Source: Candidatus Nanosyncoccus sp. (GTDB lineage: Bacteria; Patescibacteriota; Saccharimonadia; Saccharimonadales; Saccharimonadaceae). From it: a DNA stretch of 64,000 nt. Numbering within the stretch: position 1 is the stretch's first letter; each line of letters opens with the position of its first letter. Positions 2,988 to 40,041 of the stretch are shown here, in pieces. Location of the stretch: the NCBI GenBank assembly GCA_045586015.1, contig JAZMZP010000013.1:2374-66373 (forward strand). Reading direction: 5' to 3'. The position numbers and the translations under genes are program-made. The notes beneath the pieces are model-generated. The model ran no database searches. It was not told where the DNA came from and saw only the letters and a program-made list of their open reading frames with translations.

Positions 2988-3016
2988 TTGACAATCCTTA
3001 TCTTAATATATATAAT
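2988..3016 (+). promoter_or_regulatory. consensus sigma70-type promoter TTGACA-17-TATAAT
   Basis: ttgaca (2988-2993), 17-nt spacer, tataat (3011-3016). No ORF follows. Confidence 0.6.
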
Positions 3017-3022
3017 AAAGTC

Positions 3023-3096
3023 ATAAGGAATATAGCGTTAGGAACTATATTCCGTGGGTTTTGGTTCTAGTCGGTCTTACCGACTAGAATTTTTTC
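3023..3096 (+). ncRNA. candidate ~74-nt small RNA (promoter + two hairpins + intrinsic terminator)
   Basis: Perfect 9-bp hairpin ggaatatag/ctatattcc (3027-3035 and 3045-3053). A 10-bp terminator stem ttctagtcgg/ccgactagaa follows, then a T-run. No ATG-initiated ORF in the transcript. Confidence 0.4.
3065..3096 (+). terminator. intrinsic terminator
   Basis: 10-bp perfect stem, 5-nt loop, then TTTTTT (3090-3095). Confidence 0.65.
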
Positions 3097-17663: not shown

Positions 17664-18734
17664 CTAGATTTCAAGAAAACTGTCAATAAAACCCTCGATC
17701 TCTCCGTCTAAAACCTTATCTGGATCCGTTTCTTCATAACCAGTTCGCGTATCTTTTACGAGCTTATAAGGCTGCAAAACATAATTCCGAATTTGTTGTC
17801 CCCAACCTGCTGACTCGCCCGCGCGAAGCTCCCCGATTGTCGCCGCGTGTTGCTCTAGCTGCATCTGGACCAATTTACCTCTTAAAATATCCATCGCTTT
17901 TTCTTTATTTTGTAACTGTGACCGTTCGTTCTGAATCGCGACAACCGTATTCGTCGGAAGATGTGTGATTCGAACCGCCGAATTCGTCGTGTTAACCGAC
18001 TGCCCGCCGTGCCCGCCTGAATGATAAACATCGATTCGTAAGTCTTTATCGTCAATCTGAACCTCTGTATCCGCCTTAATTACCGGTAAAATTTCAACTA
18101 GCGCGAACGAAGTCTGGCGTAAATTATTCGCATTAAACGGCGATAATCGGACAAGTCGATGGACCCCGTGCTCTGACTTCAAAAGCCCATAAACATTCGT
18201 TCCCGACACTTCATAAACCGCCGTTTTTATCCCCGCTTCTTCGCCGGTTACCCGTTCTAAACAAGTCGCCTTAAACCCTTTTCGTTCAAAAAACCTCAAA
18301 TACATCCGCTCGAGCATTCCCGCCCAGTCCATCGCTTCCGTTCCGCCCGCCCCAGAAGTAATTCGAATAATCGCATCTTTCCCATCGTACGGCCCCTGAA
18401 ATCTTAAAGCCTTTTTAAGCTCCGAAAATTCACTCTCCATTCCTTCGATTTGACCGCTAATTTCTTCTTTTAAATCTTCGTCCGAAAGTGTCATTAATTC
18501 ACTTAAATCATTAATCTGGGTCTTTAAAAGCGCCCAAGGCTGCACTTCGTCCTGTAATTTCGAGAGCTCCTGATTTTTTGCCGTCGCCACTTCAACATCT
18601 CGCCAAATTTCCGGCTCCGCCACCTCTTTTTCGAGTTCCTCAATTTTTAAAACCTTATCAGATATTAGAAGTTTCTCATAGACCTTTAAAAACTCTTCTT
18701 TTAATGCCTCTAGTCGTTTCTGTAATTCCTGCAT
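17664..18734 (-). CDS. prfB: peptide chain release factor 2, single uninterrupted ORF (no +1 frameshift site)
   Basis: SPF tripeptide (RLSPFNANN) and GGQ (SGGHGGQSVN). N-terminus is continuous from MQELQKRLEALKEEF. Confidence 0.93.
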   Translation of the reverse strand: MQELQKRLEALKEEFLKVYEKLLISDKVLKIEELEKEVAEPEIWRDVEVATAKNQELSKLQDEVQPWALLKTQINDLSELMTLSDEDLKEEISGQIEGMESEFSELKKALRFQGPYDGKDAIIRITSGAGGTEAMDWAGMLERMYLRFFERKGFKATCLERVTGEEAGIKTAVYEVSGTNVYGLLKSEHGVHRLVRLSPFNANNLRQTSFALVEILPVIKADTEVQIDDKDLRIDVYHSGGHGGQSVNTTNSAVRITHLPTNTVVAIQNERSQLQNKEKAMDILRGKLVQMQLEQHAATIGELRAGESAGWGQQIRNYVLQPYKLVKDTRTGYEETDPDKVLDGEIEGFIDSFLEI

Positions 18735-18749: not shown

Positions 18750-18776
18750 TAAAAAACCCGCCTTTAAAGGCGGGTT
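18749..18776 (-). terminator. intrinsic terminator of the 18781 gene
   Basis: aacccgcc-tttaaa-ggcgggtt followed by TTTTTT on the minus strand. Confidence 0.7.
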
Positions 18777-18780
18777 AGGG

Positions 18781-19143
18781 TTATTCCCGGATTAGTCTCG
18801 AAATATCATTCCGAATGAATTCTAACCCCTTAAAAATATCTTTAACTCCAGTTTCCTGATTGGTATACGAAACTTTCACTTCGATAATACCAGTTCTCAG
18901 GTCGAGATAACGATATGGGAATAGTCTCTGGTGAGACACCGTTTCAACCGCATTGAAGATGTCTTCCACCATTCTCTTTTCGATATCTTGCTTCACTTTG
19001 AAAAGAAACCTAAATTCGAAGCTAAGCAAAACACCATTACTTATTATCGCGGAGACTTTTACATCCGGGTTCTTATCGTTATTGATATTTACCCATTTTC
19101 TTACCTCTTTTAAGTCTTCCGGTTTCAAAATCATACCACGCAT
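18781..19143 (-). CDS. hypothetical protein (120 aa), orphan island gene A
   Basis: Start moved to the ATG at 19143 (MRGMILKPEDL), preceded by GGAAGGTGGTGA. The ORF-track TTG start at 19209 is the -35 hexamer of its own promoter. Confidence 0.6.
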   Translation of the reverse strand: MRGMILKPEDLKEVRKWVNINNDKNPDVKVSAIISNGVLLSFEFRFLFKVKQDIEKRMVEDIFNAVETVSHQRLFPYRYLDLRTGIIEVKVSYTNQETGVKDIFKGLEFIRNDISRLIRE

Positions 19144-19180
19144 CAACTCACCACCTTCCTTAAAGCGCGTATGTCCTCTA

Positions 19181-19209
19181 ATTATAGCATACTTTACTAA
19201 AAAAGTCAA
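19181..19209 (-). promoter_or_regulatory. sigma70-type promoter TTGACT-17-TATAAT (copy 1 of a repeated promoter sequence)
   Basis: Minus strand reads ttgacttttttagtaaagtatgctataat. Confidence 0.65.
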
Positions 19210-19218
19210 AATCCCATA

Positions 19219-19240
19219 GAAAAGCCCCTTTCGGGGCTTA
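19219..19240 (-). terminator. intrinsic terminator of gene B
   Basis: aagcccc-tttc-ggggctt; the minus strand continues TTTTCT. Confidence 0.6.
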
Positions 19241-19242
19241 AT

Positions 19243-19494
19243 CTATTGTGTGAGATGCCAGGAAAGATTCCCCGAGTCGAACTCGAGTCGTTTCGTTTCC
19301 CGACCAACAAGCACATCGAAGATATGTAACGCGACTCCTCCGACGAACCGGATTTGGGTTCGGAGCAGTTCCGTTACCTCGGTTTCGCTCTCCCCTTGCC
19401 GCCTAAAAGAAAGTGGCTGGCAGGGTGTCATCTCGTAACCGAAAAGTGCCATTACTTCGACACGCTCTTTTTGATTTTTATTAAAGTTTTTCAT
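19243..19494 (-). CDS. hypothetical protein (83 aa), orphan island gene B
   Basis: Start set at MKNFNKNQKERVEV, preceded by AGGAG-tctat-ATG. Confidence 0.5.
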   Translation of the reverse strand: MKNFNKNQKERVEVMALFGYEMTPCQPLSFRRQGESETEVTELLRTQIRFVGGVALHIFDVLVGRETKRLEFDSGNLSWHLTQ

Positions 19495-19727
19495 ATAGAC
19501 TCCTAAAATTATTTGATAGAAGTCATCTATGTGAGCCATTTTTCGGCTCATAGCAGAGGGCATAAATGACGATACCCAGAGCCTTAAACTTTTCTCGAAG
19601 CCAGTGACCGAAGTTTAGCTCGAGCAATTTTATTATAACATAGGAGTAGCAATAATTTCTAAAATGGTGTATCATAAAAGCATAAATATATTAGTATACT
19701 ATTAATTTAAAAAATAAGGATAAAAAA

Positions 19728-21716
19728 ATGAAAGAAGCATTACCGAAACGTCCTGCCGGCGGTCGCGAAGATGATTTCGATGATCTCAACGATTGGACAT
19801 TAATGGACATTGCCACGGCACCAAATACTTCCCCAGAAGACAGAGAGAACGCCGAGGCGGAAATCGCGAGACGCGAAAAAGCGGGAACTTTTGACCCAGA
19901 TAATGCTTCCCAAGACGTTTTTTCTGACCTCACTTCACACGGCTACGATCTAGGTGACGGAAAAATTCTTTATCCGAAGTCAGAATACAAATCTTGGCTA
20001 AAATCCGATCGTAGTACACCGATTCCTACAGGTATAGTTCGCGAATCCATCGAAGAAAGATTGGCAGACGAAGAGCGTTCAAGGGACCTTGACCGGGCTA
20101 CTGGTAAAATAGCCATGCAGGCTTCTGAGGACAAATACGAAGCCGAATACGGAGCCGAATACGGAGCCGAATACGGAGGAATAGAAAAAATTAACCATCC
20201 AACCAGGGTTGTTTCAGCAAATGACGAAAGAAAGAGAGAATATAGAGCCAATGAAAAAGCGCGGGATATTGAAATAAATGAGCAGCGCAATTTAAAAGAA
20301 TCGAATAAATACGAGAACCCCTTCTTCGGTCCCGCTAAAAAAGCTGCCGCCGAAAAGGAAGCAAATTTGCCTATTTATGAAGAGGTTGAAGAACAACTGC
20401 CAAAATCGCCTGAAGCCCGAGCCAGAAGACTATACAACTATTACGAAAGACCGTTCAAGGCTAACGCCTCTGAATGGGTTTCTTTTGGCGTTTCTAACTT
20501 ACTGGAAAAAGGCATCGTAGACCCATCAACTAGTTTATTGCTCCATTCCGGCTTTGGGTCGCGCGAGGAAGGAATGATTCATGAATACATTGACCCAGAT
20601 AATAGTCTAAGTACAGAAACTATCAATGCCGAAGCTGAATTAAAAACCCGCGTAACAAGAGACCTAATAGACAAAAGAAGCGAAGAAATTTCTGAAGAAA
20701 CATTGCGTGCCGCAAAATATGACGGCTCACTTCGTGCATTGGCTACTGGCGCTAGAGTCGAAAACTACGACGGCGAAGATGTCGTTTTCTATTCTATACC
20801 GGTCAAACAAGGTGAAGAAGTCCGCGAGTTCATGGAGGATGTCGGGATAAGTTTTGAATACGACGAAGAAAACAAAGCTCTTGCCGCATCATTCCAAGGT
20901 TTTGCTAACATCATCGAAGCTATTAAAAATAACGACAAAGAAACCGAAAAAGCCTTCCAGGTGCTCGATTGGTATTATGACAATTTTCACTATAAGAAAC
21001 ATTTAAGCAGTTTTCTTGGCACCATGGATTCATTCCAAGAGAAAGCCGATGTCGCTTGGATGGCTAAATTCGAAGAATATTGTAAACATCGCGAAGAAAT
21101 CGAAAAATACTACGAAGAGTTAGAAAAAAAAGAAAAAGTTCCAGAATTTGAAAGTATCAAAGAAATATCGGAAGAAGATTTAGAAAAGTTATATCAAGAT
21201 CTTCTCGGCAATATCGTTCCCATTGACTCTAATTCTAATCCTTTCTTGTTCCCAGACAAAGAACTATTCCCACCTGTGAACAGCACGGGTTCAGTACCTC
21301 CAGTCAATCGGCCTCCTATTGCTGCTGATAAATTATATGCAATAATTAAGGAATACGGCAACATCAAATTATCAGATCCTTATCTCAATGTTTACCGTGC
21401 CGTAACTAAAGACAGGAAACAATATATTGTTATTCGATTTGGTATTCGAAATAGTAATATTGCAATAGTTGCCCCAATCACCGAAAAAACCAATGATGCT
21501 TCTTATGTCTGGATAGAGCAAGACGGCAATAATCGTGATGCCTGGATGTATGACTTTCTTGAAAACAGCCAAAATCCAAATCCAATCAGTAAATATCGAG
21601 CACATCATAACGAAAAAATTAAAGCACACAATCACATAGCTGCACCTAAACAGGGGCTCAAGCCCGTGGACAATATGTGGCGCAATATTTACAAAGATAT
21701 TGATAAAAGAGCTTAA
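19728..21716 (+). CDS. hypothetical protein (662 aa), acidic, no recognisable domain; orphan island gene C
   Basis: Long ORF preceded by AAGGA. Contains a 12-nt x3 tandem repeat encoding AEYGAEYGAEYG (~20140-20180). Confidence 0.8.
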   Translation: MKEALPKRPAGGREDDFDDLNDWTLMDIATAPNTSPEDRENAEAEIARREKAGTFDPDNASQDVFSDLTSHGYDLGDGKILYPKSEYKSWLKSDRSTPIPTGIVRESIEERLADEERSRDLDRATGKIAMQASEDKYEAEYGAEYGAEYGGIEKINHPTRVVSANDERKREYRANEKARDIEINEQRNLKESNKYENPFFGPAKKAAAEKEANLPIYEEVEEQLPKSPEARARRLYNYYERPFKANASEWVSFGVSNLLEKGIVDPSTSLLLHSGFGSREEGMIHEYIDPDNSLSTETINAEAELKTRVTRDLIDKRSEEISEETLRAAKYDGSLRALATGARVENYDGEDVVFYSIPVKQGEEVREFMEDVGISFEYDEENKALAASFQGFANIIEAIKNNDKETEKAFQVLDWYYDNFHYKKHLSSFLGTMDSFQEKADVAWMAKFEEYCKHREEIEKYYEELEKKEKVPEFESIKEISEEDLEKLYQDLLGNIVPIDSNSNPFLFPDKELFPPVNSTGSVPPVNRPPIAADKLYAIIKEYGNIKLSDPYLNVYRAVTKDRKQYIVIRFGIRNSNIAIVAPITEKTNDASYVWIEQDGNNRDAWMYDFLENSQNPNPISKYRAHHNEKIKAHNHIAAPKQGLKPVDNMWRNIYKDIDKRA

Positions 21717-21720
21717 AAAG

Positions 21721-21742
21721 CGGCCCACCTTTAGGTGGGCCG
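21721..21742. terminator. hairpin terminator shared by convergent genes C and D
   Basis: cggcccacc-ttta-ggtgggccg, with an A-run on one side and the T-run on the minus strand. Confidence 0.65.
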
Positions 21743-21748
21743 AACTAG

Positions 21749-22012
21749 CTAATCAAGCCAGAAAGGTTTTAGTCCGGTAGTGGCCTCGTAGACTAATTCA
21801 TTCGTACTGTCCGGAAGACTACCGTTCCTGTTTAATAGTCCTAACCTTATTAATTTCTTTTTTATCTCTGGGTCAATCTTGTTTGTGAATAATTCGCAAA
21901 AATTGCAAAGTTGCACATACGCTACAGGATCTTCCCAGAACAAATTATCGAGAACGACACCAAGACGTTCTTTTTCTATTTCCTTCCTCTCTTTCTCGAA
22001 ATCAATTATCAT
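21749..22012 (-). CDS. hypothetical protein (87 aa), orphan island gene D
   Basis: ATG at 22012 preceded by GGGGGTGGA. The ORF track starts 9 nt upstream at a GTG inside that SD. Confidence 0.55.
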   Translation of the reverse strand: MIIDFEKERKEIEKERLGVVLDNLFWEDPVAYVQLCNFCELFTNKIDPEIKKKLIRLGLLNRNGSLPDSTNELVYEATTGLKPFWLD

Positions 22013-22069
22013 GTTTTCCACCCCCTTACTTCTTTAAAAAAGAACCAACCGCTTTTGCGACTCTTCATT

Positions 22070-22098
22070 ATTATAACACGTATGACTAAAAAAGTCAA
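22070..22098 (-). promoter_or_regulatory. sigma70-type promoter TTGACT-17-TATAAT (copy 2)
   Basis: Minus strand reads ttgacttttttagtcatacgtgttataat. Confidence 0.7.
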
Positions 22099-22116
22099 TA
22101 GAAAAATACAAAACTA

Positions 22117-22145
22117 TTGACAAATTAGTAAATCTATGCTAAAAT
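22117..22145 (+). promoter_or_regulatory. sigma70-type promoter TTGACA-17-TAAAAT, back-to-back with the 22070 promoter
   Basis: ttgaca (22117-22122), 17-nt spacer ending tatgc, taaaat (22140-22145). Confidence 0.7.
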
Positions 22146-22154
22146 ATACAAACA

Positions 22155-22170
22155 ATGCCCATTTGGGCAT
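22155..22170 (+). promoter_or_regulatory. 7-2-7 inverted repeat ATGCCCA-TT-TGGGCAT just downstream of the -10 (operator or 5' hairpin candidate)
   Basis: Perfect arms, extendable to acaat...attgt (22152-22177). Sits between the promoter and the SD of gene E. Confidence 0.45.
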
Positions 22171-22202
22171 ATATTGTTCTTTAAGAAGGAGGGGATATAT
22201 GT

Positions 22203-22793
22203 ATGGGTGAAATTATCAACTTCGCAGCTAGAAGGGAGAAGGCACTGCAGAGAGAGCCTTGTCTTAGCCCTATTACGGTGGAGCGAATCCATCCGAAGTA
22301 TGTTAAAATCGGGTTTCATCATGACTGTTTCACGATGCCGTTTCTGGAAAATGGGCTTCGTGGCCTCTCTCATGGCGAAAAACCCATTTGGGAACTTTAC
22401 AAAGCGACCGAGGATGACTCGCCGTACTATTCCTATTATATTAAGTTGAATAGAGACTTGGGAGAAGAAACGGAAGATATTCTGACTACGATTGTCGATA
22501 GAGCTATTAAGAAGTCTTATTTAAAAGAGGTTAGGACCTGGGATATCCGTGTTGATATTTCGGAACTCGCAAAACCGCTCAGCTATCAGCTCGAAGATGG
22601 ATTCAACATTGATAGTCGAACCAAGAGACTTCTTGAGAGCACCGGCATCAAAAACGCTCGAGAGTTATCCGAAATGACAAGAGAGGATCTCTGCGAAATT
22701 CCTGGCATGTCAACAGAAGATATCGCCAGAATAGAGAAGAGTCTTGCTGTCCGTGGAATTTTCTTAAGGACGGCTAAAGTTTCAACAATGTAA
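22203..22793 (+). CDS. hypothetical protein (196 aa) with C-terminal RNA polymerase alpha-subunit CTD-like helix-hairpin-helix domain; orphan island gene E
   Basis: IDSRTKRLLESTGIKNARELSEMTREDLCEIPGMSTEDIARIEKSLAVRGIFL aligns by eye to RpoA CTD [53 protein letters not shown]. GGAGG precedes the ATG. Confidence 0.75.
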   Translation: MGEIINFAARREKALQREPCLSPITVERIHPKYVKIGFHHDCFTMPFLENGLRGLSHGEKPIWELYKATEDDSPYYSYYIKLNRDLGEETEDILTTIVDRAIKKSYLKEVRTWDIRVDISELAKPLSYQLEDGFNIDSRTKRLLESTGIKNARELSEMTREDLCEIPGMSTEDIARIEKSLAVRGIFLRTAKVSTM

Positions 22794-22794
22794 C

Positions 22795-22822
22795 AAAAAG
22801 CCACCAGTATTGGTGGCTTTTT
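22795..22822. terminator. bidirectional intrinsic terminator between genes E and F
   Basis: aaaaa-gccacca-gtat-tggtggc-ttttt. Confidence 0.75.
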
Positions 22823-22832
22823 CTCTTATTAT

Positions 22833-23153
22833 TTATACTACATCTTCTTTGTCATCATCGTTCGCATTATCTATACTCTCTTTATCATTTTCGTTTTCAG
22901 AATCTGGATTCATCGAACTCATTGCGGTCTTCGCCAACTCTGCCTCAGCCTTTTTTAGGAATTCAGCCGTCGCATCCTCAAGTTCTGGGTCTTCCCCTTC
23001 CTTAACGCCTTCGGCTACTTTTGGACCCTCATATTGTTTTTTGGCTCTCGTGTCCTTCTTATCTGTCATGTTTTGGTAATCGACACCATCTAAATCATCC
23101 GGCCCGCGACCATCTCCAAAACCATCGTAATCCGGGGTACGTTCATTTTTCAT
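22833..23153 (-). CDS. hypothetical highly acidic, probably disordered protein (106 aa); orphan island gene F
   Basis: GGAGG 6 nt upstream of the ATG, with its own extended -10 promoter. Confidence 0.6.
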   Translation of the reverse strand: MKNERTPDYDGFGDGRGPDDLDGVDYQNMTDKKDTRAKKQYEGPKVAEGVKEGEDPELEDATAEFLKKAEAELAKTAMSSMNPDSENENDKESIDNANDDDKEDVV

Positions 23154-23184
23154 ATTTTACCTCCATTTAACTGTTATTATTAAG

Positions 23185-23193
23185 ATTATAACA
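23185..23193 (-). promoter_or_regulatory. extended -10 promoter (TGTTATAAT) of gene F
   Basis: Minus strand reads tgttataat followed by a ~31-nt leader with GGAGG. Confidence 0.5.
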
Positions 23194-23198
23194 CATAT

Positions 23199-24512
23199 TT
23201 AATAGGAACTGTGCTCAATTGCTTTAATTCTTTTGTTCTCGAAAACTACCGCTTTGTTTCTAGTTTGCATCTTTCTCAATTCATCACTAGCATCATCGTC
23301 TTCCGCGCATTCAATAAAACTATCTGCCGCAGACATAATCCCATCATAAGTCGGATCATAATGAAAATCATTATCCTTCCTTTTTGGGTCTCTAAACATA
23401 TTCTCCAAAATAATCACCTTTTCCTCTTCGTCTTTTCCATCCAACTCTTTTTTAATATCTTCGGGTAAAATGCCCTTTCTATTCATTGTTTCAATCGTTA
23501 ACTTCGCACTCTTTTTTAGGGCCTCATCAGTCAAATGTTTAATAACTTCAAGCTTCTTCATCGCCAAGACTAAATCTGATCTTTTTTCATAATCCTTCGG
23601 CATCATTTTTATCATCATCTCTGCTTGTTTATTAATCTCGGACAATATTTTAAACTGGGCAAGCACAGTTCTTGGGTCGTCATTCACTACACTTTCGCTT
23701 TTCGGGCTAAACTTTTTTCGTTTTTCGTCATAATCAAAATCATATTGCCTAATCGAATCGGCGATTTCTCCATTAATGCCAATCACGAACCTCGGGATCA
23801 TGCCTATTTTCTTTTTGTCATGTTTACCTGTTTCCTCATTCCTCCAGGGGTTAGTATAAAAATCTAACTGTGAAAAACCAAACGGCAGGGGCTTCTGGAA
23901 TGTGTCATTTTCGTTGTTTGACCTTGAAATTTTTTCCGCAAAATACCGTTTCGCCTGTACCTCCGCAGCCTCTTTTGGCAGCTGTTCATCTTTTTTCCAA
24001 GTAGTAGCATCAATTCCAATTTCAATTTTATTCCCAACGGGCGGGAAACGTTCTCGTACGGTTTTACCGAGAGATAATGTCGCTACAGAATCAATCCTGT
24101 GTCTTTTATCATCAAATTCTCTCGCAGAGCAACAAAAAGCCTTAAAATGAACCTTCCCGTCTTTCGGGAAATTCCCAAGCCACCTCAAATGCGAAATCCC
24201 ATAATTAGTTAATACTTCTAAAACTTCAGCATTTTTTGCATTTTTACTCTTTCCGAATTTCAACAAAGAATCATACTCACTATTTGCGACATGTATTAGC
24301 TTTCCTTCACTCCAGATTTCCCCCCATCCATCATCTTTTAATCTTTGTAGACGTTTCCCGACTTCTGTTTTTCTGTCTGTTAAAGCTGTGCCACCAACTT
24401 TCTTTGTTTTGCCTCTATCTCCGGCCTGTTGTTTATTGTTTACGAAATTATTTTTGTTTTGCCGCTCTTCACGCTCGATATTGCGAAGAGCTAAATCTTC
24501 AACGCTGCTCAT
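23199..24512 (-). CDS. hypothetical protein (437 aa), no recognisable domain; orphan island gene G
   Basis: Long ORF with leaderless-type promoter geometry. Confidence 0.8.
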   Translation of the reverse strand: MSSVEDLALRNIEREERQNKNNFVNNKQQAGDRGKTKKVGGTALTDRKTEVGKRLQRLKDDGWGEIWSEGKLIHVANSEYDSLLKFGKSKNAKNAEVLEVLTNYGISHLRWLGNFPKDGKVHFKAFCCSAREFDDKRHRIDSVATLSLGKTVRERFPPVGNKIEIGIDATTWKKDEQLPKEAAEVQAKRYFAEKISRSNNENDTFQKPLPFGFSQLDFYTNPWRNEETGKHDKKKIGMIPRFVIGINGEIADSIRQYDFDYDEKRKKFSPKSESVVNDDPRTVLAQFKILSEINKQAEMMIKMMPKDYEKRSDLVLAMKKLEVIKHLTDEALKKSAKLTIETMNRKGILPEDIKKELDGKDEEEKVIILENMFRDPKRKDNDFHYDPTYDGIMSAADSFIECAEDDDASDELRKMQTRNKAVVFENKRIKAIEHSSY

Positions 24513-24518
24513 AAGACC

Positions 24519-24527
24519 ATTCTAACA
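24519..24527 (-). promoter_or_regulatory. extended -10 (TGTTAGAAT) exactly 6 nt upstream of the gene G ATG (leaderless architecture)
   Basis: Minus strand reads tgttagaat-ggtctt-ATGagc, immediately after the gene H terminator. Confidence 0.55.
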
Positions 24528-24530
24528 TAA

Positions 24531-24556
24531 AAAGAGCGCCACCTACAAGGTGGCGC
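24531..24556 (-). terminator. intrinsic terminator of gene H
   Basis: gcgccacc-tacaa-ggtggcgc with TCTTTTT on the minus strand. The gene H stop codon lies inside the stem-loop. Confidence 0.75.
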
Positions 24557-24839
24557 GATATGATGGATGTGCATTTAAAAATGCAACCACTTTTTTTACA
24601 GATTCCTCGAGAGAATCTTCTTCGAATCTGTATGCTAAGTTGCACTCCACCCTAATTACCCCGAATAAAAAATCACTTTTGCTCGAGGATAAACGTACAC
24701 TCCAAGCAGTTTGCTCTGAAATATCGTTGAAAAGACTGTCAAGATCATCATAATCAACGTCGAACAAGAGCGGCTCGAAGAAAATATTGAATGTTGATTC
24801 GCTTATTTTTTCCGTTACAATTGGTTTGTCTTCTAACAT
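24543..24839 (-). CDS. hypothetical acidic protein (98 aa); orphan island gene H
   Basis: Start set at MLEDKPIVTEK, preceded by GGGGGGTGA. Confidence 0.6.
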   Translation of the reverse strand: MLEDKPIVTEKISESTFNIFFEPLLFDVDYDDLDSLFNDISEQTAWSVRLSSSKSDFLFGVIRVECNLAYRFEEDSLEESVKKVVAFLNAHPSYRATL

Positions 24840-24873
24840 ACTTTCACCCCCCAAAGTCTAACCAACTCTGTTA

Positions 24874-24902
24874 ATTATAGCACACTTTTATAAAAAAGTC
24901 AA
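24874..24902 (-). promoter_or_regulatory. sigma70-type promoter TTGACT-17-TATAAT (copy 3)
   Basis: Minus strand reads ttgacttttttataaaagtgtgctataat. Confidence 0.7.
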
Positions 24903-24919
24903 TTTTAATTATATAACTA

Positions 24920-24948
24920 TTGACATTTAAAATAAAGTATGCTATAAT
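24920..24948 (+). promoter_or_regulatory. sigma70-type promoter TTGACA-17-TATAAT, back-to-back with the 24874 promoter
   Basis: ttgaca (24920-24925), 17-nt spacer ending tatgc, tataat (24943-24948). Confidence 0.7.
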
Positions 24949-25154
24949 AAGGGCAGCCATTAAGAATAGTTTATCAAGGAGGTGTGTTTCTAATGGCGAA
25001 GATTTACATCGACATCGGTCTCCTTTCCGAGATTAACCCTGCTTAGATGAATGATGCCGGAGTGGGTATCTCCGACTTAAATAAAAACTACCCGAGGGAA
25101 GTTTTTTAAACCTCCCTTTGCCATATTTCAATACAGAAACATAGGAGGAGAACT

Positions 25155-25409
25155 ATGAGTTATGATATTGATGCATGCAAGAATTTAATAGTTGCGTTAG
25201 GCGCAGTTCGTAGCGAAGAATATCGAAAAGCATATCGGAGATACTTGGTCAACAAGACCAAAGCTAATGAAGCCACGCTCAAATACTGGGCGGACATGTT
25301 GAAAGACCCGTTCACGAATTGCACGGATGCAGATCTGAGGACGATTCAGCGACAAGTAGAGGCCGGAATTAATAAAAACTTCAGATACAATCCCAACGAA
25401 ATTTTTTAG
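25155..25409 (+). CDS. hypothetical protein (84 aa); orphan island gene I
   Basis: AGGAGGAG 5 nt upstream of the ATG. Followed by a strong terminator. Confidence 0.6.
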   Translation: MSYDIDACKNLIVALGAVRSEEYRKAYRRYLVNKTKANEATLKYWADMLKDPFTNCTDADLRTIQRQVEAGINKNFRYNPNEIF

Positions 25410-25428: not shown

Positions 25429-25454
25429 GGCCCAACCACGGTTGGGCCTTTTTT
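25429..25454 (+). terminator. intrinsic terminator of gene I
   Basis: ggcccaac-cacg-gttgggcc-tttttt. Confidence 0.8.
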
Positions 25455-26457: not shown

Positions 26458-27039
26458 ATGAATCGTCGGCTCGTTGAGGTTTTTCGTCTCAACCACAAGG
26501 AGATTCTAGATTGTCGGACAAAGGGTAGAGTTCTGTCCGATTATTTAGAGTGTGTGATGACTCAGGCTCTGAAGCGAATTAAAGAAAGAAAGGGTCTAGA
26601 ATGGGACAACTACACCCTCGCAACGGAAGAAGCAAGAATTCATTCTATGCTGAGGATAGGAGATTATATCCGAATAGACGAGGTCGACCAAGCCTTGATG
26701 GTTGCGAGAGTCTTTAAGGGTCCCATTCCACAGAAGAGCGAGGATGGGCGTACTGACTTTGGTTGGCTCGAGTTTAAGGAAGACAATCTTGGCTCGTTAT
26801 ACGAGAAGATTAAGCCGGTTACCGGATACGAGCTTAGCCTCATCCTTGATTCGTTAAAAGAGACGCTGCCGCCATCCCAATACGAAATAATTCGTCATTA
26901 TCTGTCGATGGCATGGAAGGCTCCGTATGCTTATACTGCCGCAGAATGCGAAAGTCTAATCGCGGCAATCACAAACATCCAGGAGATTCGGCTAATGCGT
27001 AATAAAATTTACGCAATAATGAGCGGAACTCTGTATTAA
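26458..27039 (+). CDS. hypothetical protein (193 aa)
   Basis: ORF with a weak SD (AAAGGA) and a terminator downstream. No recognisable motif. Confidence 0.65.
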   Translation: MNRRLVEVFRLNHKEILDCRTKGRVLSDYLECVMTQALKRIKERKGLEWDNYTLATEEARIHSMLRIGDYIRIDEVDQALMVARVFKGPIPQKSEDGRTDFGWLEFKEDNLGSLYEKIKPVTGYELSLILDSLKETLPPSQYEIIRHYLSMAWKAPYAYTAAECESLIAAITNIQEIRLMRNKIYAIMSGTLY

Positions 27040-36946: not shown

Positions 36947-38410
36947 ATGAAAAGATGCTTTGATGCCAGGAAGTTTTTAAAAATCCAGAAAAAGAAAATT
37001 AACGAGCGTATTAGGATGTTCGATAAGCTTTATATCGAATTCGGCGGAAAATTAATCGATGACCAACACGCCGCTCGCACCCTCCCCGGCTACCTCCCGG
37101 ACTTAAAAATCAGACTTTTCCAAGAATTCAAAGACCAAGCCGAGGTTATCCTCTGTATCAACGCCGATGCGATTGAAAAATCGAAAATTCGCGCCGACCA
37201 TATGATTACTTACGAAAGCGAAGTTCTAAGACTAATCGAATTCCTCCGCGCTAGAGAAATTACGGTCAACTCGGTTGTCATTACCCTCTTTAACGGCCAG
37301 AAAAAAGCCGAAGATTTCGCGAAAAAACTCAAAGATTATAAAATCAAAGCCTACTTCCACTCCTTTACCAAAGGCTACCCGACCGATGTTGACACAATCG
37401 TGTCCGACGAAGGTTATGGCGCGAACCCTTATATTAAAACCACGAAACCTCTTGTCATCGTTTCGGCTCCTGGCCCTGGCTCCGGAAAACTCGCCACCTG
37501 CCTTTCCCAGCTTTACCACGAATCAAAACAAGGCAAAAAAGTCGGATACGCCAAATTCGAAACTTTCCCGGTTTGGGATTTACCCTTAAAACACCCAGTT
37601 AATATCGCCTATGAAGCCGCGACGGCCGATTTGAATGATAAAAATATGATTGATAATTTCCACCTCGAGAAATATGGCGTATCGGCCGTGAATTATAATC
37701 GCGACCTCGAAACTTTCCCGGTTCTAAAAGAAATCCTAACTCGCATTTCCGGAAAAAGCATCTATAACTCTCCGACCGATATGGGTGTTAATGTTATCGG
37801 TCAATGTATTACCGACGATGTAGCTGTCCGCCGCGCCGCAAAAGACGAGATTATCCGTCGTTATCTCCGCGCCCTGACCGACTTAAAAAAAGGCCTGGTT
37901 GGCGAAGAAGTTCCAAACCGTATTAAGCTACTTATGAATGAGCTAAAAATTTCGGAAGCCGACCGCCCAGTTATTAAAAAAGCCGAAGAGAAGCGTCAAA
38001 AATCTGGCAACAAACCGAGTGCCTGTCTTGCGGTCGGGAAAAAGTTTATCGTCGGCAGAAAAACCGACTATCTCTCGCCGATTTCGAGCACCTTCTTAAA
38101 CGCAATTAAAACTTTAACTAAAATTCCGGATGAAGTCGACCTCATCGCCCCGACAATTCTAAAACCAATCCTCGAAATTAAAAACAGAACCTCGAATTTT
38201 ACTAGAAAACAACTCAATCTCGACGAGGTATTAATCGCCCTTTCGATTTGCTCGACGACAAATCCGACGGTTAAAAAAGCCTTAGAAAGCCTTGACAAAT
38301 TACAAGGAGCCGAACTTCACGCAACGCACTTAATCCCCGACGATGAGTTCGTCGTCCTCGCGAATCTCGGAATCAACGCTACTTGTGGGGTTGAACTTGA
38401 TCTCGGTTGA
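36947..38410 (+). CDS. UPF0371 / DUF1846 family protein
   Basis: KLYIEFGGKLIDDQHAARTLPGYLPDLKIRLFQEF and the overall ~490-aa length match my memory of the UPF0371 family. Confidence 0.75.
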   Translation: MKRCFDARKFLKIQKKKINERIRMFDKLYIEFGGKLIDDQHAARTLPGYLPDLKIRLFQEFKDQAEVILCINADAIEKSKIRADHMITYESEVLRLIEFLRAREITVNSVVITLFNGQKKAEDFAKKLKDYKIKAYFHSFTKGYPTDVDTIVSDEGYGANPYIKTTKPLVIVSAPGPGSGKLATCLSQLYHESKQGKKVGYAKFETFPVWDLPLKHPVNIAYEAATADLNDKNMIDNFHLEKYGVSAVNYNRDLETFPVLKEILTRISGKSIYNSPTDMGVNVIGQCITDDVAVRRAAKDEIIRRYLRALTDLKKGLVGEEVPNRIKLLMNELKISEADRPVIKKAEEKRQKSGNKPSACLAVGKKFIVGRKTDYLSPISSTFLNAIKTLTKIPDEVDLIAPTILKPILEIKNRTSNFTRKQLNLDEVLIALSICSTTNPTVKKALESLDKLQGAELHATHLIPDDEFVVLANLGINATCGVELDLG

Positions 38411-38761
38411 ATCATCCTGAATCAAAACTAAGTTCCCATCGTCAATCCGATATTCGTATTCATCATTTAGCGTATATAGCCAATCCGTCTCGATTTTCAA
38501 CTTCCCGTCCTCAATCGCCCAGATGAAGTCATAGCTATTTTCATTATTATTGGTCGTTAATTTCCCTTTCCCTATCTCAGAAAAAGTCCAAATCACGCTC
38601 GGCTCGTCTTCTTTTACCCAGCTATCCACCGAAATTAAATATTCCCCGTCCTGAAGCGAAGCGCCCTTATTTAGATTAAGAACTAAAAAAATCACGCCGA
38701 TAACAAGCGTAATTAATCCGATAATAAAAACAATAATTGAGATAATTTGCTTCTTCTTCAT
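38330..38761 (-). CDS. hypothetical membrane-anchored protein (143 aa)
   Basis: N-terminal TM helix IISIIVFIIGLITLVIGVIFLVL. The last 27 codons overlap the convergent DUF1846 3' end. Confidence 0.6.
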   Translation of the reverse strand: MKKKQIISIIVFIIGLITLVIGVIFLVLNLNKGASLQDGEYLISVDSWVKEDEPSVIWTFSEIGKGKLTTNNNENSYDFIWAIEDGKLKIETDWLYTLNDEYEYRIDDGNLVLIQDDSTEIKFNPTSSVDSEIREDDELIVGD

Positions 38762-38770
38762 ACCCCCATT

Positions 38771-39154
38771 TTAGCAATAGAGTTTTGATTTTACAAGTTC
38801 AAGATAGCTTTTTGCCGCTTGGCGGAAATTATCGAGCTCCTCTCCCTCGATTTTTACATAAGAACTACCAGCCACTTTTTTATAAACTCCATTTGGCCTA
38901 ACTTCATAACGAATAGTCATATCTTGAAGTTTTCCAAAAGTATCCGACCAATCTTCGTGCCAGAACCAGACATTTCCTTTATGCTTGAAAAATTCCCGGT
39001 TATGACCGTCAGGCACCGGTCCAAAAATCGTCTTCCCGAGCTCAGATTCGGCATTAATTAAGTCCTCATAACTTAATTTATTTGAATATGGGACTTTTGG
39101 AAGTAAATCGTTTCCGATATTAGTAATTGATTTTAACAGTTTCTTGAGCGACAT
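38771..39154 (-). CDS. hypothetical protein (127 aa)
   Basis: GAGGAG 8 nt upstream of the ATG. No recognisable motif. Confidence 0.65.
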   Translation of the reverse strand: MSLKKLLKSITNIGNDLLPKVPYSNKLSYEDLINAESELGKTIFGPVPDGHNREFFKHKGNVWFWHEDWSDTFGKLQDMTIRYEVRPNGVYKKVAGSSYVKIEGEELDNFRQAAKSYLELVKSKLYC

Positions 39155-39279
39155 TGTTCAATCTCCTCATTTATTGCATTTAATTCTTCGTAAATCTTCT
39201 TATCTTCGTCTTTAGCCTCAAAATTATAGGCCTCATCGCCCATTAGGGGTATTCTGAAAAGTTGATTCTCCCTTTCCAT
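39133..39279 (-). CDS. candidate leaderless small ORF (48 aa, acidic), below the ORF-track size cut-off
   Basis: MERENQLFRIPLMGDEAYNFEAKDEDKKIYEELNAINEEIEQCRSRNC. Its ATG is exactly 6 nt after TGATATAAT. Its 3' end overlaps the SD and start of the next gene. Confidence 0.4.
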   Translation of the reverse strand: MERENQLFRIPLMGDEAYNFEAKDEDKKIYEELNAINEEIEQCRSRNC

Positions 39280-39285
39280 ACCCTA

Positions 39286-39294
39286 ATTATATCA
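39286..39294 (-). promoter_or_regulatory. extended -10 (TGATATAAT) whose TGA is the tatD stop codon
   Basis: Minus strand reads tgatataat-tagggt-ATGgaa. Confidence 0.5.
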
Positions 39295-40041
39295 CGAAAC
39301 GCTTGAAAAGTCAACCCCAAACAGGTCAAAAACGTTATCTGTAGTGGTTTTTGCCACCTCTTTAACAGATATCTCTAATTTTTCCGCTAACCACTTCGCA
39401 ATATCGGCAATATATGCCGGCTCATTAGTTTCGCCTCGATGCGGAGTCGGCGCCAAAAATGGCGCATCAGTCTCGAGGAGAATTCTCTCAAGTGGCGGGG
39501 TTGGCAAAGTTGAATAAGTCGCAAGCCCGTTCACCCCGACATAAAAATCAGTTTCATTCAAAATCCGCTTTAGGACCTTTTTGCTGTCCGTAAAAGAATG
39601 CACCACACCACGTACCTTCGGAAAATTGCTCACCACCGCAAAAAAGTCCGAGAAAGCTTCTCTGACGTGGAACGAAACCGGCAAACCATTATCAATCGCC
39701 ATCTGCAACATTTCCTCGAATAACTTAATCTGCGCCTCTCGGTCATAACCCTCATAATGATAATCTAGTCCCACTTCCCCGATAGCTACAAGTTTATCTC
39801 GCTCGGGGGCACGCCCCGAGTAAGACAAACTTGTAGCTTGTTCGGGGTGAATGCCATAGGTCCAATAAACATTATCGTGGGAATTAGCGAAATCGCGCGC
39901 AGCTAACGAATCTTCGTGCGATGTCCCGATGCAGATAATCTTCTCGACGCCTCTTTTTTTAGCTCGTTTAATCATCTCTTCGGCTTGTTTCGCCGTAAAA
40001 AACTCTCGGTCGTGGAGATGACAATGCGAATCAATTAGCAC
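39292..40041 (-). CDS. tatD: TatD family metal-dependent DNase/hydrolase
   Basis: [26 protein letters not shown]..., LLETDAPFL motifs. Overlaps the typA 3' end by 11 nt. Confidence 0.92.
   Translation of the reverse strand: MLIDSHCHLHDREFFTAKQAEEMIKRAKKRGVEKIICIGTSHEDSLAARDFANSHDNVYWTYGIHPEQATSLSYSGRAPERDKLVAIGEVGLDYHYEGYDREAQIKLFEEMLQMAIDNGLPVSFHVREAFSDFFAVVSNFPKVRGVVHSFTDSKKVLKRILNETDFYVGVNGLATYSTLPTPPLERILLETDAPFLAPTPHRGETNEPAYIADIAKWLAEKLEISVKEVAKTTTDNVFDLFGVDFSSVS
39784..39838. repeat. 55-nt nested hairpin inside the tatD coding sequence
   Basis: agctacaagttt-atctcg-ctcgggg-gcacg-ccccgag-taagac-aaacttgtagct, with a perfect 12-bp outer stem and a perfect 7-bp inner stem. Confidence 0.6.

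Follow-up and report, generated by a model that had tools for sequence, protein, structure and literature searches.

A strain-variable island of nine orphan genes between prfB and dus in a Saccharibacterium, including gene pairs also carried by prophages

The window, meaning the whole 64-kb (64,000-nucleotide) stretch of DNA analysed here, comes from a gut/rumen-type, Nanosyncoccus-like Saccharibacterium. Between prfB and dus, ORF calls place nine tightly packed ORFs of alternating orientation (here g1 to g9; Table 1), as an earlier sequence-only reading of this DNA had described. The most likely starts of g1 (called as 120 aa in relatives) and g2 are ATG 19146 and ATG 19494, giving 121 and 83 aa. 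The same reading was right to call the proteins orphans, since none of the nine has a significant match in Pfam, NCBIfam, PHROGs, PADLOC or PDB, the alpha-CTD-like C-terminus of g5 (below threshold in Pfam) being the sole exception. Foldseek searches with AlphaFold models of g3 and g7 returned nothing. No island protein has a signal peptide, a transmembrane segment or, as had been noted, an integrase-like domain. Likewise, neither an att-like repeat nor a tRNA was found at the island; the entire window lacks tRNAs, other phage debris, att sites and a compositional signal, and no Rfam family reaches its gathering score there. A proposed comparison with the flanks did not set the island apart: the two do not differ in GC or GC3, and the shift in codon usage is only slight (a distance equalled by 5.6% of random gene sets).

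Table 1. Genes and expression signals of the prfB-dus interval, in window coordinates
Feature	Position	Strand	Details
prfB	17664-18734	-	left border of island
Terminator hairpin 3' of g1	18755..18776	-	T-run overlaps leaderless prfB promoter
g1	18781..19146	-	121-aa basic orphan, singleton; SD (AAGGAAGGTGG) before ATG 19146
g1 promoter	19209-19181	-	TTGACT-17-TATAAT with TGC extended -10
g2 terminator	19222-19239
g2	19243..19494	-	83-aa orphan, resident
g2 extended -10 promoter	19632-19661	-
g3	19728..21716	+	662-aa acidic multidomain protein
Terminator hairpin between convergent g3 and g4	21721..21742	called on -	9-bp stem, 8 GC pairs
g4	21749..22021	-	90-aa acidic partner of g3, always convergent to it
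Back-to-back divergent promoters of g4 and g5	22070..22145	-/+	22098-22070 (-, g4), 22117-22145 (+, g5)
g5	22203..22793	+	196 aa, alpha-CTD-like helix-hairpin-helix C-terminus, resident
Terminator hairpin between convergent g5 and g6	22795..22822	called on +
g6	22833..23153	-	106 aa, very acidic (pI 4.2, 30% D+E)
g6 extended -10	23185-23193	-	TGTTATAAT
g7	23199..24512	-	437-aa basic protein, candidate enzyme
g7 promoter	24519-24527	-	leaderless type, TGTTAGAAT-N6-ATG
g8 terminator hairpin	24536-24556
g8	24543..24854	-	103 aa, small and acidic; partner gene lying upstream of g7
Back-to-back divergent promoters of g8 and g9 leader	24874..24948	-/+	24902-24874 (-, g8), 24920-24948 (+, g9 leader)
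g9 leader	24949..25154	+	206 nt; SD, 17-codon mini-ORF (24993-25046)
g9	25155..25409	+	84-aa basic helical orphan, singleton
g9 terminator	25429-25448
dus	start probably at 25485	+	right border of island

The island is mostly a set of separate, strongly promoted units, although this description does not fit every gene. Five promoter-like sites that had been read from the sequence are near-perfect sigma-70 promoters, scoring 11 to 12 of 12. Each has a TGn extended -10, and together they account for five of the nine such sites in the 64 kb; a stricter promoter pattern gave 11 matches at two or fewer mismatches against 0.8 expected. The broader suggestion that almost every gene has a near-consensus promoter holds for these five sites and fails for g2, g6 and g7, which have an extended -10 alone (TGTTATAAT or TGTTAGAAT), and for g3, which has no near-consensus promoter. 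Similarly, a terminator for each gene can be granted in part. The six hairpin terminators are a hairpin and T-run after each of g1, g2, g8 and g9, one shared by g3 and g4, and one shared by g5 and g6; g7 has none of its own. A leaderless TGTTATAAT-N6-ATG arrangement is common among the housekeeping genes of the window, for example in front of prfB, dus and the gene at 27089. The majority of island genes instead combine a promoter that has both a full -35 and an extended -10 with an SD-led mRNA, so that strong, constitutive expression by the host RNA polymerase is possible. The g9 leader also contains a hairpin and T-run near 25095-25125, and it gave no Rfam match and a fold z-score of -0.49.

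The two back-to-back promoter arrangements are real, with 17 to 18 nt separating the -35 hexamers, but they do not appear to be paralogous cassettes as first proposed. When 48 same-pattern promoters from 13 Saccharibacteria loci were compared at 47 unconstrained positions, the promoters of cassettes 1 and 2 shared 20 of 47, against a background mean of 17.0 (sd 3.9). The best pair in the window (19209- and 24902-) shares 25 of 47 and ranks 33rd of 1128 pairs, and truly orthologous or duplicated promoters score 32 to 37. Thus, the window promoters are no more alike than unrelated promoters of the clade. The listed strings CTATTGACA, TATGCTAWAAT and TTGACTTTTTT recur at unrelated genes of other species; what the two cassettes have in common is a promoter pattern found across the clade. 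Similar back-to-back pairs occur at loci L013, L018 and L019.

A related species with about 74% nucleotide identity to the window in prfB and dus (locus L023) is informative about which genes belong to this interval. Its order is prfB, a 135-aa gene, a g2 ortholog, a back-to-back promoter pair equivalent to that of g4/g5, a g5 ortholog (64%), an acidic 79-aa gene and dus, with no g3, g4, g7 or g8. The g2 ortholog is 74% identical in amino acids, occupies the same site in L023 and L024, and has a pN/pS of 0.12 against L023. The 79-aa gene stands at the position of g6, a homology judged by eye; g6 itself is probably disordered. In this species g2, g5 and a g6-like gene are syntenic residents of the interval. 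The alpha-CTD-like domain reported for g5 is present at residues 138-181, below threshold (18.0 bits against a Pfam cut-off of 23.8). A homolog in L019 passes at 28.5 bits, and the family profile matches about 40 RpoA alpha-CTD chains (E 0.009-0.9). Among known systems, g5 comes closest to the RNA polymerase alpha-CTD (PF03118) and to stand-alone HhH proteins, its residues ~131-190 aligning to alpha-CTD chains from many species. It lacks the alpha N-terminal domain, however, and its first 130 residues are novel and show a conserved pattern of Cys and His.

These observations bear on the original proposal of one coherent nine-gene system that arose as a bidirectional promoter cassette was duplicated. 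All nine proteins are orphans, the two promoter pairs have equal geometry, and the block is 96-100% conserved among strain-level relatives, except for a diverged g4 and a deletion in g7/g8. However, beyond strain level no more than four of the nine are found together; these four co-localise across distant genomes, so the scattering in relatives that was to have refuted the proposal is not seen for this subset. The resident-only related species and the promoter-similarity background largely refute a single system, the dispensability of g7/g8 in close relatives also speaks against it, and this proposal is now highly improbable. Instead, the island is a patchwork of three residents, two mobile pairs and two singletons. 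The singletons g1 (100% identical in L010) and g9 are confined to strain variants of about 98%, apart from a weak hhalign match between g1 and F12, a prophage protein (E 0.0026, probability 11%).

The first mobile pair is g3/g4. The g3 protein has a conserved N-domain (residues 1-~115, its most conserved part), a charged helical linker encoded with a 12-nt tandem repeat at 20134-20178, a helical middle and a beta-rich C-domain; these domains are also found separately in other genomes. Its AF2 model (pLDDT 74) has no Foldseek or PDB match, and its 34 full-length homologs are Saccharibacteria without exception. A g4 homolog directly follows that of g3 in L011, L012, L013, L015, L017, L018 and L027-L029, and the convergent pair is found in at least nine independent loci whose flanks differ (tRNA-Gln, tRNA-Gly with transposase fragments, housekeeping genes). 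As to selection, pN/pS is 0.12 for g4, 0.26 for g5, 0.16 for g6 against strain relatives and 0.20 for g9. The g4 coding sequence has diverged by 13% from strain relatives between flanks that are 99.7-100% identical, with 11.5 non-synonymous changes, whereas g3 is 99.7% identical; this argues against a tight cognate toxin-immunity pairing.

The second pair is g8/g7. The g7 superfamily comprises 79 clusters at 50% identity. In g7, residues E99, D134, D135, D141, D168, K194 and G212 are invariant. Searches of Pfam, PHROGs and PDB gave no match for g7, its AF2 model (pTM 0.78) found nothing in PDB or BFVD with Foldseek, and no fold or motif assignment backing enzymatic activity was obtained. The pI of g8 is 4.3, compared with 8.7 for g7. 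In L004, a g8 homolog (38%) and the homolog of g7 share a 4-nt overlap, and small genes that are not homologous to g8 hold its position in other genomes. The pair is dispensable, for five close relatives have lost or disrupted it. An 868-bp deletion in L005, L006, L007 and L010 runs up to 24899, within the -35 on the minus side, and leaves the promoter on the plus side intact; L008 has an internal stop.

A suspected phage connection is borne out by two other species (L013 and L015), in which a block F12-g7'-g3-g4, with the g7-like gene directly upstream of g3, lies inside collinear prophages. An integrase flanks it on one side and a holin/GH25 lysin, ParB-methylase, terminase, SPP1 portal and MuF on the other; genes matching PHROGs lie to its right. 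Since INPHARED, IMG/VR and PLSDB gave no homolog of any island gene, the phage link comes from these two related prophages. Like L013 and L015, L017 and L018 have a g7-core gene no more than 3 kb from g3/g4 (4 of ~11 g3-seeded loci), and in L004 one is found within 3 kb of a g4-like gene. The pairs are adjacent in three genomes besides the two prophage-bearing species. Single ORFs in L017 (6405-7817) and L018 (11860-13257) join the N-domain of g3, matched over profile positions 1-146 (E 1e-20 to 2.5e-22) with the residues invariant in the g3 family kept, to the core of g7, matched over profile positions ~120-347 (E 2e-11 and 3e-6). These fusions in two genomes functionally link g3 and g7.

One interpretation is that the two pairs are early or replication genes left behind by a temperate Saccharibacteria phage, which integrated and later lost its integrase, structural and lysis genes; having no present cellular function, the pairs would now be disappearing. 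The module is collinear between the two prophages at 78% nucleotide identity, close to the 79.6% of the structural genes, so it belongs to the conserved phage backbone and does not look like inserted cargo; it may be a normal early or replication function and no moron. In L011, the phage-family gene F6 still adjoins g3 beside tRNA-Gln, one g7-family member weakly matches a replication-initiator PHROG (E 0.0095), and the lesions in g7/g8 arose twice independently. Decay is nonetheless unlikely. Most of the full-length g3 homologs lie outside prophage contexts, g4 is under purifying selection, the window is free of other phage debris, and most g3/g4 copies and some intact g7-family genes persist alone among housekeeping genes, without nearby phage genes. 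Furthermore, near-perfect promoters and terminators are kept around module genes in every locus. Across 11 loci, 23 full-consensus promoters fall in 43.7 kb of module regions versus 18 in 222 kb outside, a 6.5-fold higher density (binomial p 8.5e-9).

This enrichment also speaks against a second interpretation, that nine unrelated, Saccharibacteria-specific cellular proteins, serving for example an epibiotic lifestyle, accumulated in a recombination-prone hot spot beside translation genes, with phage carriage incidental. Native composition would fit, and relatives have further orphan islands in their fusA-tuf and rplC-prfB intervals. Recombination is patchy throughout this population and also affects prfB. 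Promoters of comparable strength drive mnmA and other non-island genes as well, and among ten distant g7-superfamily clusters checked, both with a source name are Saccharibacteria, one lying alone between leuS and spoU. This too is improbable: the adjacency of g7 core, g3 and g4, their residence between integrase and terminase, and a domain fusion that makes independent function unlikely all oppose it, and the proteins lack signal peptides or transmembrane segments to suggest surface or host-contact roles.

The best explanation, to which we give a probability of about one half, is that the island consists of accessory cassettes that derive from phages and are expressed autonomously, and that may form a conflict module. 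Several findings weigh against it: the phage link comes from just two related prophages, in which the module is backbone; the majority of g3/g4 copies and some g7-family genes have no phage genes near them; composition matches the flanks; and the island has no integrase, att repeat or tRNA. The protein families are new, but the feature is of a known kind. Prophage morons, or lysogenic-conversion cassettes, are a concept from lambdoid and HK97-type phages, and the pairs resemble these single genes in having a sigma-70 promoter and an intrinsic terminator of their own at either end, in being carried by temperate phages, in occupying varying chromosomal sites and in being dispensable at strain level. 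They differ in forming conserved backbone in both prophages, and the island has host-like composition, no lysogenic-conversion phenotype and no homology to known morons. As in anti-phage defence or type II TA systems borne on prophages or islands, a large candidate enzyme (g7) follows a small, variable gene that reads in the same direction; in the window and in L004 this gene is acidic, and in L004 the two overlap. Further likenesses are carriage by prophages, location at variable hot spots, presence or absence from strain to strain and constitutive promoters. However, the 437-aa g7 has an unrecognised fold, other genomes do not always have an acidic gene as its small partner, g3 and g4 converge and are not co-transcribed, and the defence reading first suggested finds no match among PADLOC models, nor in Pfam or PDB. 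Polymorphic toxins likewise combine a conserved N-domain with different C-terminal modules and have small partner genes adjacent, but only two architectures are seen here, a metagenome scan gave full-length g3 alone, and secretion-system genes, signal peptides and recognised toxin or immunity domains are lacking.

Under the favoured reading of phage-derived cassettes, the prfB-dus interval would be a strain-variable hot spot for accessory genes with three layers. Resident g2, the DNA-binding alpha-CTD-like g5 with its divergent promoter pair, and acidic g6 would form the first. The convergent g3/g4 and co-directional g8/g7 would be mobile pairs spread among Saccharibacteria, in part at least on temperate phages, and g1 and g9 would be singletons, each gene acting as an autonomous, moron-like cassette. 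As the likeliest mechanism, the two pairs would act jointly as a phage-derived conflict or accessory module. Because of its invariant acidic cluster and lysine, g7 may be a metal-dependent enzyme, with g8 as its small acidic modulator. Because they are fused in some genomes, the g3 N-domain and the g7 core would serve one pathway, with g3 as a large scaffold and g4 as its small, independently and strongly expressed partner. The beneficiary may be the lysogen or the phage, for example through superinfection exclusion or host takeover.

The nine open reading frames (ORFs) called between prfB and dus are all present, and together they form a composite island made up of a resident trio of genes, two gene pairs that are mobile and tied to each other in function (g3 with g4, and g8 with g7), and two singletons. 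These pairs travel on temperate Saccharibacteria phages and also as free-standing cassettes. The protein families are new, whereas the kind of feature is a familiar one, namely a hot spot for mobile accessory genes. In the table, the starts given for g1, g2, and dus are the probable ones according to SD positions and the gene calls of close relatives.

Coordinates of the island genes and of other features discussed in the text
Feature	Position (strand)	Remarks
Candidate small RNA	2988-3095	promoter 2988-3016 (+); hairpins ~3023-3095
prfB	17664-18734 (-)	one flank; gene order rplC-rplD-rplW then prfB
g1	18781-19146 (-)	121 aa; probable ATG 19146
g2	19243-19494 (-)	83 aa; probable ATG 19494
g3	19728-21716 (+)	662 aa
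g3 linker repeat	20134-20178	12-nt unit AATACGGAGCCG, three copies
g4	21749-22021 (-)	90 aa; diverged part 21750-22000
Cassette 1	22070-22145	back-to-back promoters, g4/g5
g5	22203-22793 (+)	196 aa
g6	22833-23153 (-)
g7	23199-24512 (-)	437 aa
Deletion in relatives	24032-24899	868 bp
g8	24543-24854 (-)	103 aa
Cassette 2	24874-24948	back-to-back promoters, g8/g9 leader
g9 leader	24949-25154	mini-ORF 24993-25046
g9	25155-25409 (+)
dus	start 25485 (+)	other flank; probable ATG
g10	26458-27039	193 aa; directly past dus
Second orphan unit	38330-39314	promoter 39314-39286 (-)
TGTTATAAT-N6-ATG starts	18734(-), 24512(-), 25485(+), 27089(+), 34061(-), 36852(-), 41848(-), 44899(-)/44914(+), 51858(+)	-10 spacing 6 nt, 7 or 8 in two; 24512 is g7

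Searches of four family libraries (Pfam, PHROGs, PADLOC, and NCBIfam) with the nine island proteins and the g10 product yielded nothing significant, in agreement with the initial impression that no known family is represented apart from one alpha-CTD-like domain. This exception is a sub-threshold match of g5 residues 138-181 to HhH/alpha-CTD domains. Profile searches of PDB sequences with alignments of g3, the g3 N-domain, g4, g5, g7, and the g7 superfamily recovered only the same g5 signal, and 48 members of the g7 superfamily gave only isolated, chance-level matches in Pfam and PHROGs. With AF2 models, Foldseek found no match at E <= 0.001 in PDB for either g3 (pLDDT 74, mainly helical with a beta-rich C-domain) or g7 (pTM 0.78), or in BFVD for g7; recurring hits to gyrase, 14-3-3, and ACE structures were dismissed for TM-scores of at most 0.25 and very large rmsd values. 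Neither a tblastn search of INPHARED with g3, g5, and g7 nor a blastn search of PLSDB with the island gave a match, and three scans of IMG/VR were likewise negative. A JGI metagenome scan with the g3 N-domain profile added just five g3 genes, and a g4 homolog adjoins three of these. Those homologs of the island proteins that bear names all belong to 'Candidatus Saccharibacteria' or 'Ca. Nanosyncoccus' and come from metagenome assemblies (yak, buffalo, sheep, and others). Among the titles and abstracts found by literature searches on Saccharibacteria prophages, leaderless transcription, and Nanosyncoccus, none treats these gene families. All nine proteins are soluble, with no TM segment or hydrophobic N-terminus, and g6 is extremely acidic. 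The neighboring g10 is likewise an orphan; since gene calls in relatives give it 232-233 aa, the window copy may begin upstream of the ATG used.

The resident genes can be recognized by comparison with a related species (L023/L024) that shares ~74% nucleotide identity in prfB and dus. Its prfB-dus interval carries a 135-aa gene, a g2 ortholog (74% amino acid identity), a GC-rich stretch that contains an ORF of 41 codons, two promoters placed back to back, a g5 ortholog (64%), and an acidic 79-aa gene where g6 would be, followed by dus. Within this interval there is no g1, g3, g4, g7, g8, or g9. This gene content marks g2, g5, the g6-like gene, and the divergent promoter as old residents and the other genes as later additions. 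The GC-rich stretch (L023 3226-3640; ORF MAQKKINLVKYTANKPLPKGWAKEVVCDKKGEPIRVTVRRK) occupies the place of g3-g4, where the g5 cassette drives it from its minus-side promoter, and has no match in Rfam.

Among the residents, g5 scores 18.0 bits against PF03118 (RNA_pol_A_CTD), below the Pfam gathering cut-off of 23.8, while its homolog in locus L019 exceeds the cut-off at 28.5 bits. The g5 family profile matches ~40 alpha-CTD chains in PDB at E values of 0.009-0.9, and the match to TIGR02027 (RpoA) is limited to model positions 229-296. The N-terminal dimerization/assembly domain of RpoA is not seen in g5, whose N-terminal 130 residues match nothing. Genes of the g5 family also adjoin g3 paralogs in L019 and, in L021, a protein of 730 aa that ends in a g7 core.

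The composition of the island is essentially native. GC content is 0.397 compared to 0.415 in neighboring genes, GC3 is 0.407 compared to 0.401, and 5.6% of random gene sets show a larger codon-usage distance. On this comparison with the flanks, which had been proposed as a check, compositional foreignness was rejected. Other orphan islands of relatives also lie between core translation genes (fusA-tuf in L021/L022 and rplC-prfB in L024). One such island encodes a TrmB-like regulator, the 730-aa protein that has a g7 core, a homolog of g5, and a Csx3-like protein. The clade appears to favor gaps between core translation genes as hot spots.

A promoter scan located five island sites that score 11-12 of 12, each with a TGn extended -10, exactly where they had been placed by the sequence-only reading; the whole 64 kb holds nine sites in this score range. 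A stricter pattern, TTGACW-N14-TGCTAWAAT, has 11 matches at <=2 mismatches where 0.8 are expected. The expectation that nearly every gene has its own near-consensus promoter is only partly borne out: the full -35 grammar is present for g1, g4, g5, g8, and g9, whereas g2, g6, and g7 have an extended -10 alone (TGTTATAAT or TGTTAGAAT) and the scan found no near-consensus promoter for g3. Six terminator hairpins follow g1, g2, g3/g4 (common), g5/g6 (common), g8, and g9. With promoter sites and terminators found at the island genes, the picture of mostly independent units under strong promoters stands. A count over 11 loci gives 23 full-consensus promoters in the 43.7 kb of module regions versus 18 in the 222 kb outside, a 6.5-fold enrichment (binomial p 8.5e-9).

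There is a clear split in promoter style. Accessory genes use a -35 element, an extended -10, and an SD sequence, whereas many housekeeping genes, including prfB, dus, and those at the other tabulated starts except g7, have TG(T/C)TATAAT followed ~6 nt later by ATG, an arrangement that implies leaderless mRNAs. In the island, g2 and g6 are SD-led as well and g7 is the exception. One divergent pair (44899/44914) shares a palindromic TGCTATAAT-TATAGC-ATG in both directions. Outside the island, a perfect 12/12 promoter precedes two hairpins, the second with a T-run, and no ORF, making this region a candidate small RNA. Also outside the island, an 11/12 promoter drives a second small, strongly promoted orphan unit of two small genes, one for an orphan of 127 aa and the other for a DUF5640 protein of 143 aa. 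The g9 leader contains a strong SD, a 17-codon mini-ORF (MAKIYIDIGLLSEINPA), and a hairpin with a T-run before the g9 SD that could be an attenuator; it has no Rfam match by gathering score or E-value threshold, and its folding energy is unremarkable.

The two back-to-back cassettes had been regarded as paralogous duplicates. Their similarity was evaluated against 48 promoters matching TTGACW-N14-TGNTAWAAT from 13 clade loci, scored at 47 unconstrained positions, for which pairwise identity averages 17.0 (sd 3.9). Cassette 1 and cassette 2 agree at 20 of 47 positions on the plus side and 20 on the minus side, and the best pair in the window (19209- and 24902-) reaches 25, which ranks 33 of 1128. 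Agreement at 32-37 positions is seen for promoters that are orthologous or genuinely duplicated (L013 versus L015, and two within L013). The shared strings that had been taken as a sign of duplication are contained in a clade-wide extended consensus derived from position counts, tATTGAC(A/T)(A/T)(A/T)T...T(A/G)TGCTATAAT. Back-to-back pairs with ~18 nt between -35 hexamers also occur in L013, in L018, and in L023 ahead of the g5 ortholog, and L019 has a pair separated by ~10 nt. Overall, the cassette similarity lies inside the clade background, paralogy of the cassettes was rejected as not demonstrable, and a single nine-gene system built by cassette duplication is not supported.

Two loci, L013 (GCA_017432435.1) and L015 (JAUMXO010000003.1), are prophages that carry an integrase, several genes, a small gene of family F12, a g7-like gene, g3, g4, and several more genes, followed by holin, GH25-LysM lysin, ParB-methylase, terminase, SPP1-type portal, and MuF genes; PHROG-matching genes flank the module on its right. 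They are collinear from the integrase past the terminase at 78-82% nucleotide identity (module block 78%, structural block 79.6%), with the g7-like gene, g3, and g4 present in the same order in both. In L011, a gene of phage family F6 adjoins g3. The suspected phage connection is therefore upheld, as is co-localization in relatives for four of the genes, although not for the set of nine as one system. The window itself has no prophage.

One of the two main rivals to a phage-derived module holds that these are unrelated lineage-specific genes that have gathered in a common hot spot. One g7-family member does stand alone between leuS and spoU. However, single ORFs in L017 and L018 join the g3 N-domain to the g7 core, each preceded by a small F20 gene and each <2 kb from a g3/g4 pair. 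Profile-profile comparison shows no homology between g3 and g7, so the tie between them is one of fusion and adjacency rather than common descent. Apart from these fusions, all occurrences of the g3 N-domain are of g3 type (5 of 5 in metagenomes, plus 34 database matches).

The g3 family has 34 full-length homologs, with a very strongly conserved N-terminal region of ~115 residues and a central motif, GF..LDWYFD. A g4 homolog lies convergently and directly after g3 in L011, L012, L013, L015, L017, L018, and L027-L029, and the flanks of the pair vary by locus (tRNA-Gln, tRNA-Gly with transposase fragments, or housekeeping genes). The tandem repeat in the disordered linker of g3 encodes EYGAEYGAEYG and differs in copy number in L010. 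Compared to L010/L005, the g4 coding sequence has 41 mismatches (13% diverged, pS 0.46, pN/pS 0.12), whereas its surroundings (g3, terminator, promoter cassette, and g5) are all 99.7-100% identical, which indicates allelic replacement confined to g4. Similar divergent patches in prfB show that recombination in this population is a general phenomenon.

The close g7 family has eight members, and a profile search extends it to 79 clusters at 50% identity; a source is named for just two of the 10 distant clusters checked, and both are Saccharibacteria. Residues E99, D134, D135, D141, D168, K194, and G212 are invariant in 48 diverse members. In the window, g8 and g7 are co-directional and parted by a terminator hairpin and an extended -10. 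In L004, a g8 homolog (38% identical) overlaps g7 by 4 nt in the same direction, followed by a 323-aa gene and a g4-like gene, and at other loci a different small gene (69 aa, F12, or F20) lies upstream of g7. Homology among the small partners (g1, g8, F12, F20, and the 69-aa protein of L001) was not established, with best hhalign E values of 0.0026 and 0.023 and probabilities of <=11%.

Strain-level relatives (~98% nucleotide identity) provide natural mutants. L005, L006, L007, and L010, which are syntenic from prfB to dus, share a deletion at TCAATTTTA microhomology that takes out g8 with its promoter as well as the first 480 nt of g7 but leaves the g9 promoter intact, and L008 retains the region with an internal stop in g7. 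Thus, at least two independent lesions, spread over five close relatives, have inactivated g7/g8. Such losses would suit the remaining main rival, that the island is a decaying prophage remnant. The integrase, direct repeats, and tRNA expected of an integrative island or prophage are missing: there is no integrase domain among the island proteins, no flanking direct repeat among the listed families of the repeat scan, and no tRNA in the 64-kb window (nor any Rfam family at gathering score), as the sequence-only reading had noted.

A phage-derived accessory or conflict module is taken, by inference, as the most likely function. Genes set between their own promoter and terminator (five 11-12/12 promoters, three extended -10 elements, and six hairpins) match prophage morons and many prophage-borne conflict genes, although the distinct composition expected of a moron is not seen. 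No island protein significantly matches a component of the known anti-phage defense systems in PADLOC-DB v2; the sole and weak match is g5 to Cas8b (E 0.0049, 14 bits). In type II toxin-antitoxin systems, the two genes are adjoining, co-directional, and often overlapping. The g8 and g7 genes are co-directional, with the overlap in L004 and the hairpin and extended -10 between them in the window described above, and g7 is far larger than typical toxins. No toxin or antitoxin fold was recognized, with no match for g7 in Pfam, NCBIfam, PADLOC, PDB, or by Foldseek and none for g8 in the family libraries. Polymorphic toxins place a conserved N-terminal trafficking domain on many C-terminal toxins; the g3 N-domain is fused to the g7 core in L017 and L018 and is otherwise of g3 type. 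No secretion genes occur in the loci examined, and none of the island proteins has a secretion-type hydrophobic N-terminus or a TM segment.

In the proposed scheme, g7 would be an enzyme and g8 and g4 would be small partners. More specifically, there is perhaps one chance in five that g8-g7 and g3-g4 constitute an undescribed, Saccharibacteria-specific, phage-borne conflict system for defense, superinfection exclusion, or toxin-immunity. Under such a scheme, g7 might represent a new enzyme fold with invariant E/DD/D/D/K residues, g3 might serve as a modular scaffold with an N-domain that can be exchanged onto the core of the enzyme, and control might be exerted by small partner proteins made from dedicated strong promoters. 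In this reading, g5 could be an alpha-CTD mimic acting on the AT-rich divergent promoters.

The genomes of Saccharibacteria and other CPR bacteria are tiny, and CRISPR-Cas is often missing from them. To our knowledge, little is known about CPR phages, mobile elements, and transcription regulation. Natural transformation has been established for Southlakia, a genetically tractable Saccharibacterium. The locus offers a testable handle, with two linked and undescribed families, g3 and g7, that occur on temperate phages and as free-standing cassettes, that are tied together by a Rosetta-stone fusion, and for which natural g7/g8 knock-out alleles exist in close relatives. If this proves to be a defense or exclusion system, it would be among the first CPR-specific ones. 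Otherwise, the island would be a typical hot spot of hypothetical genes, and its main value would be the promoter consensus, which could help the development of expression tools for Saccharibacteria.
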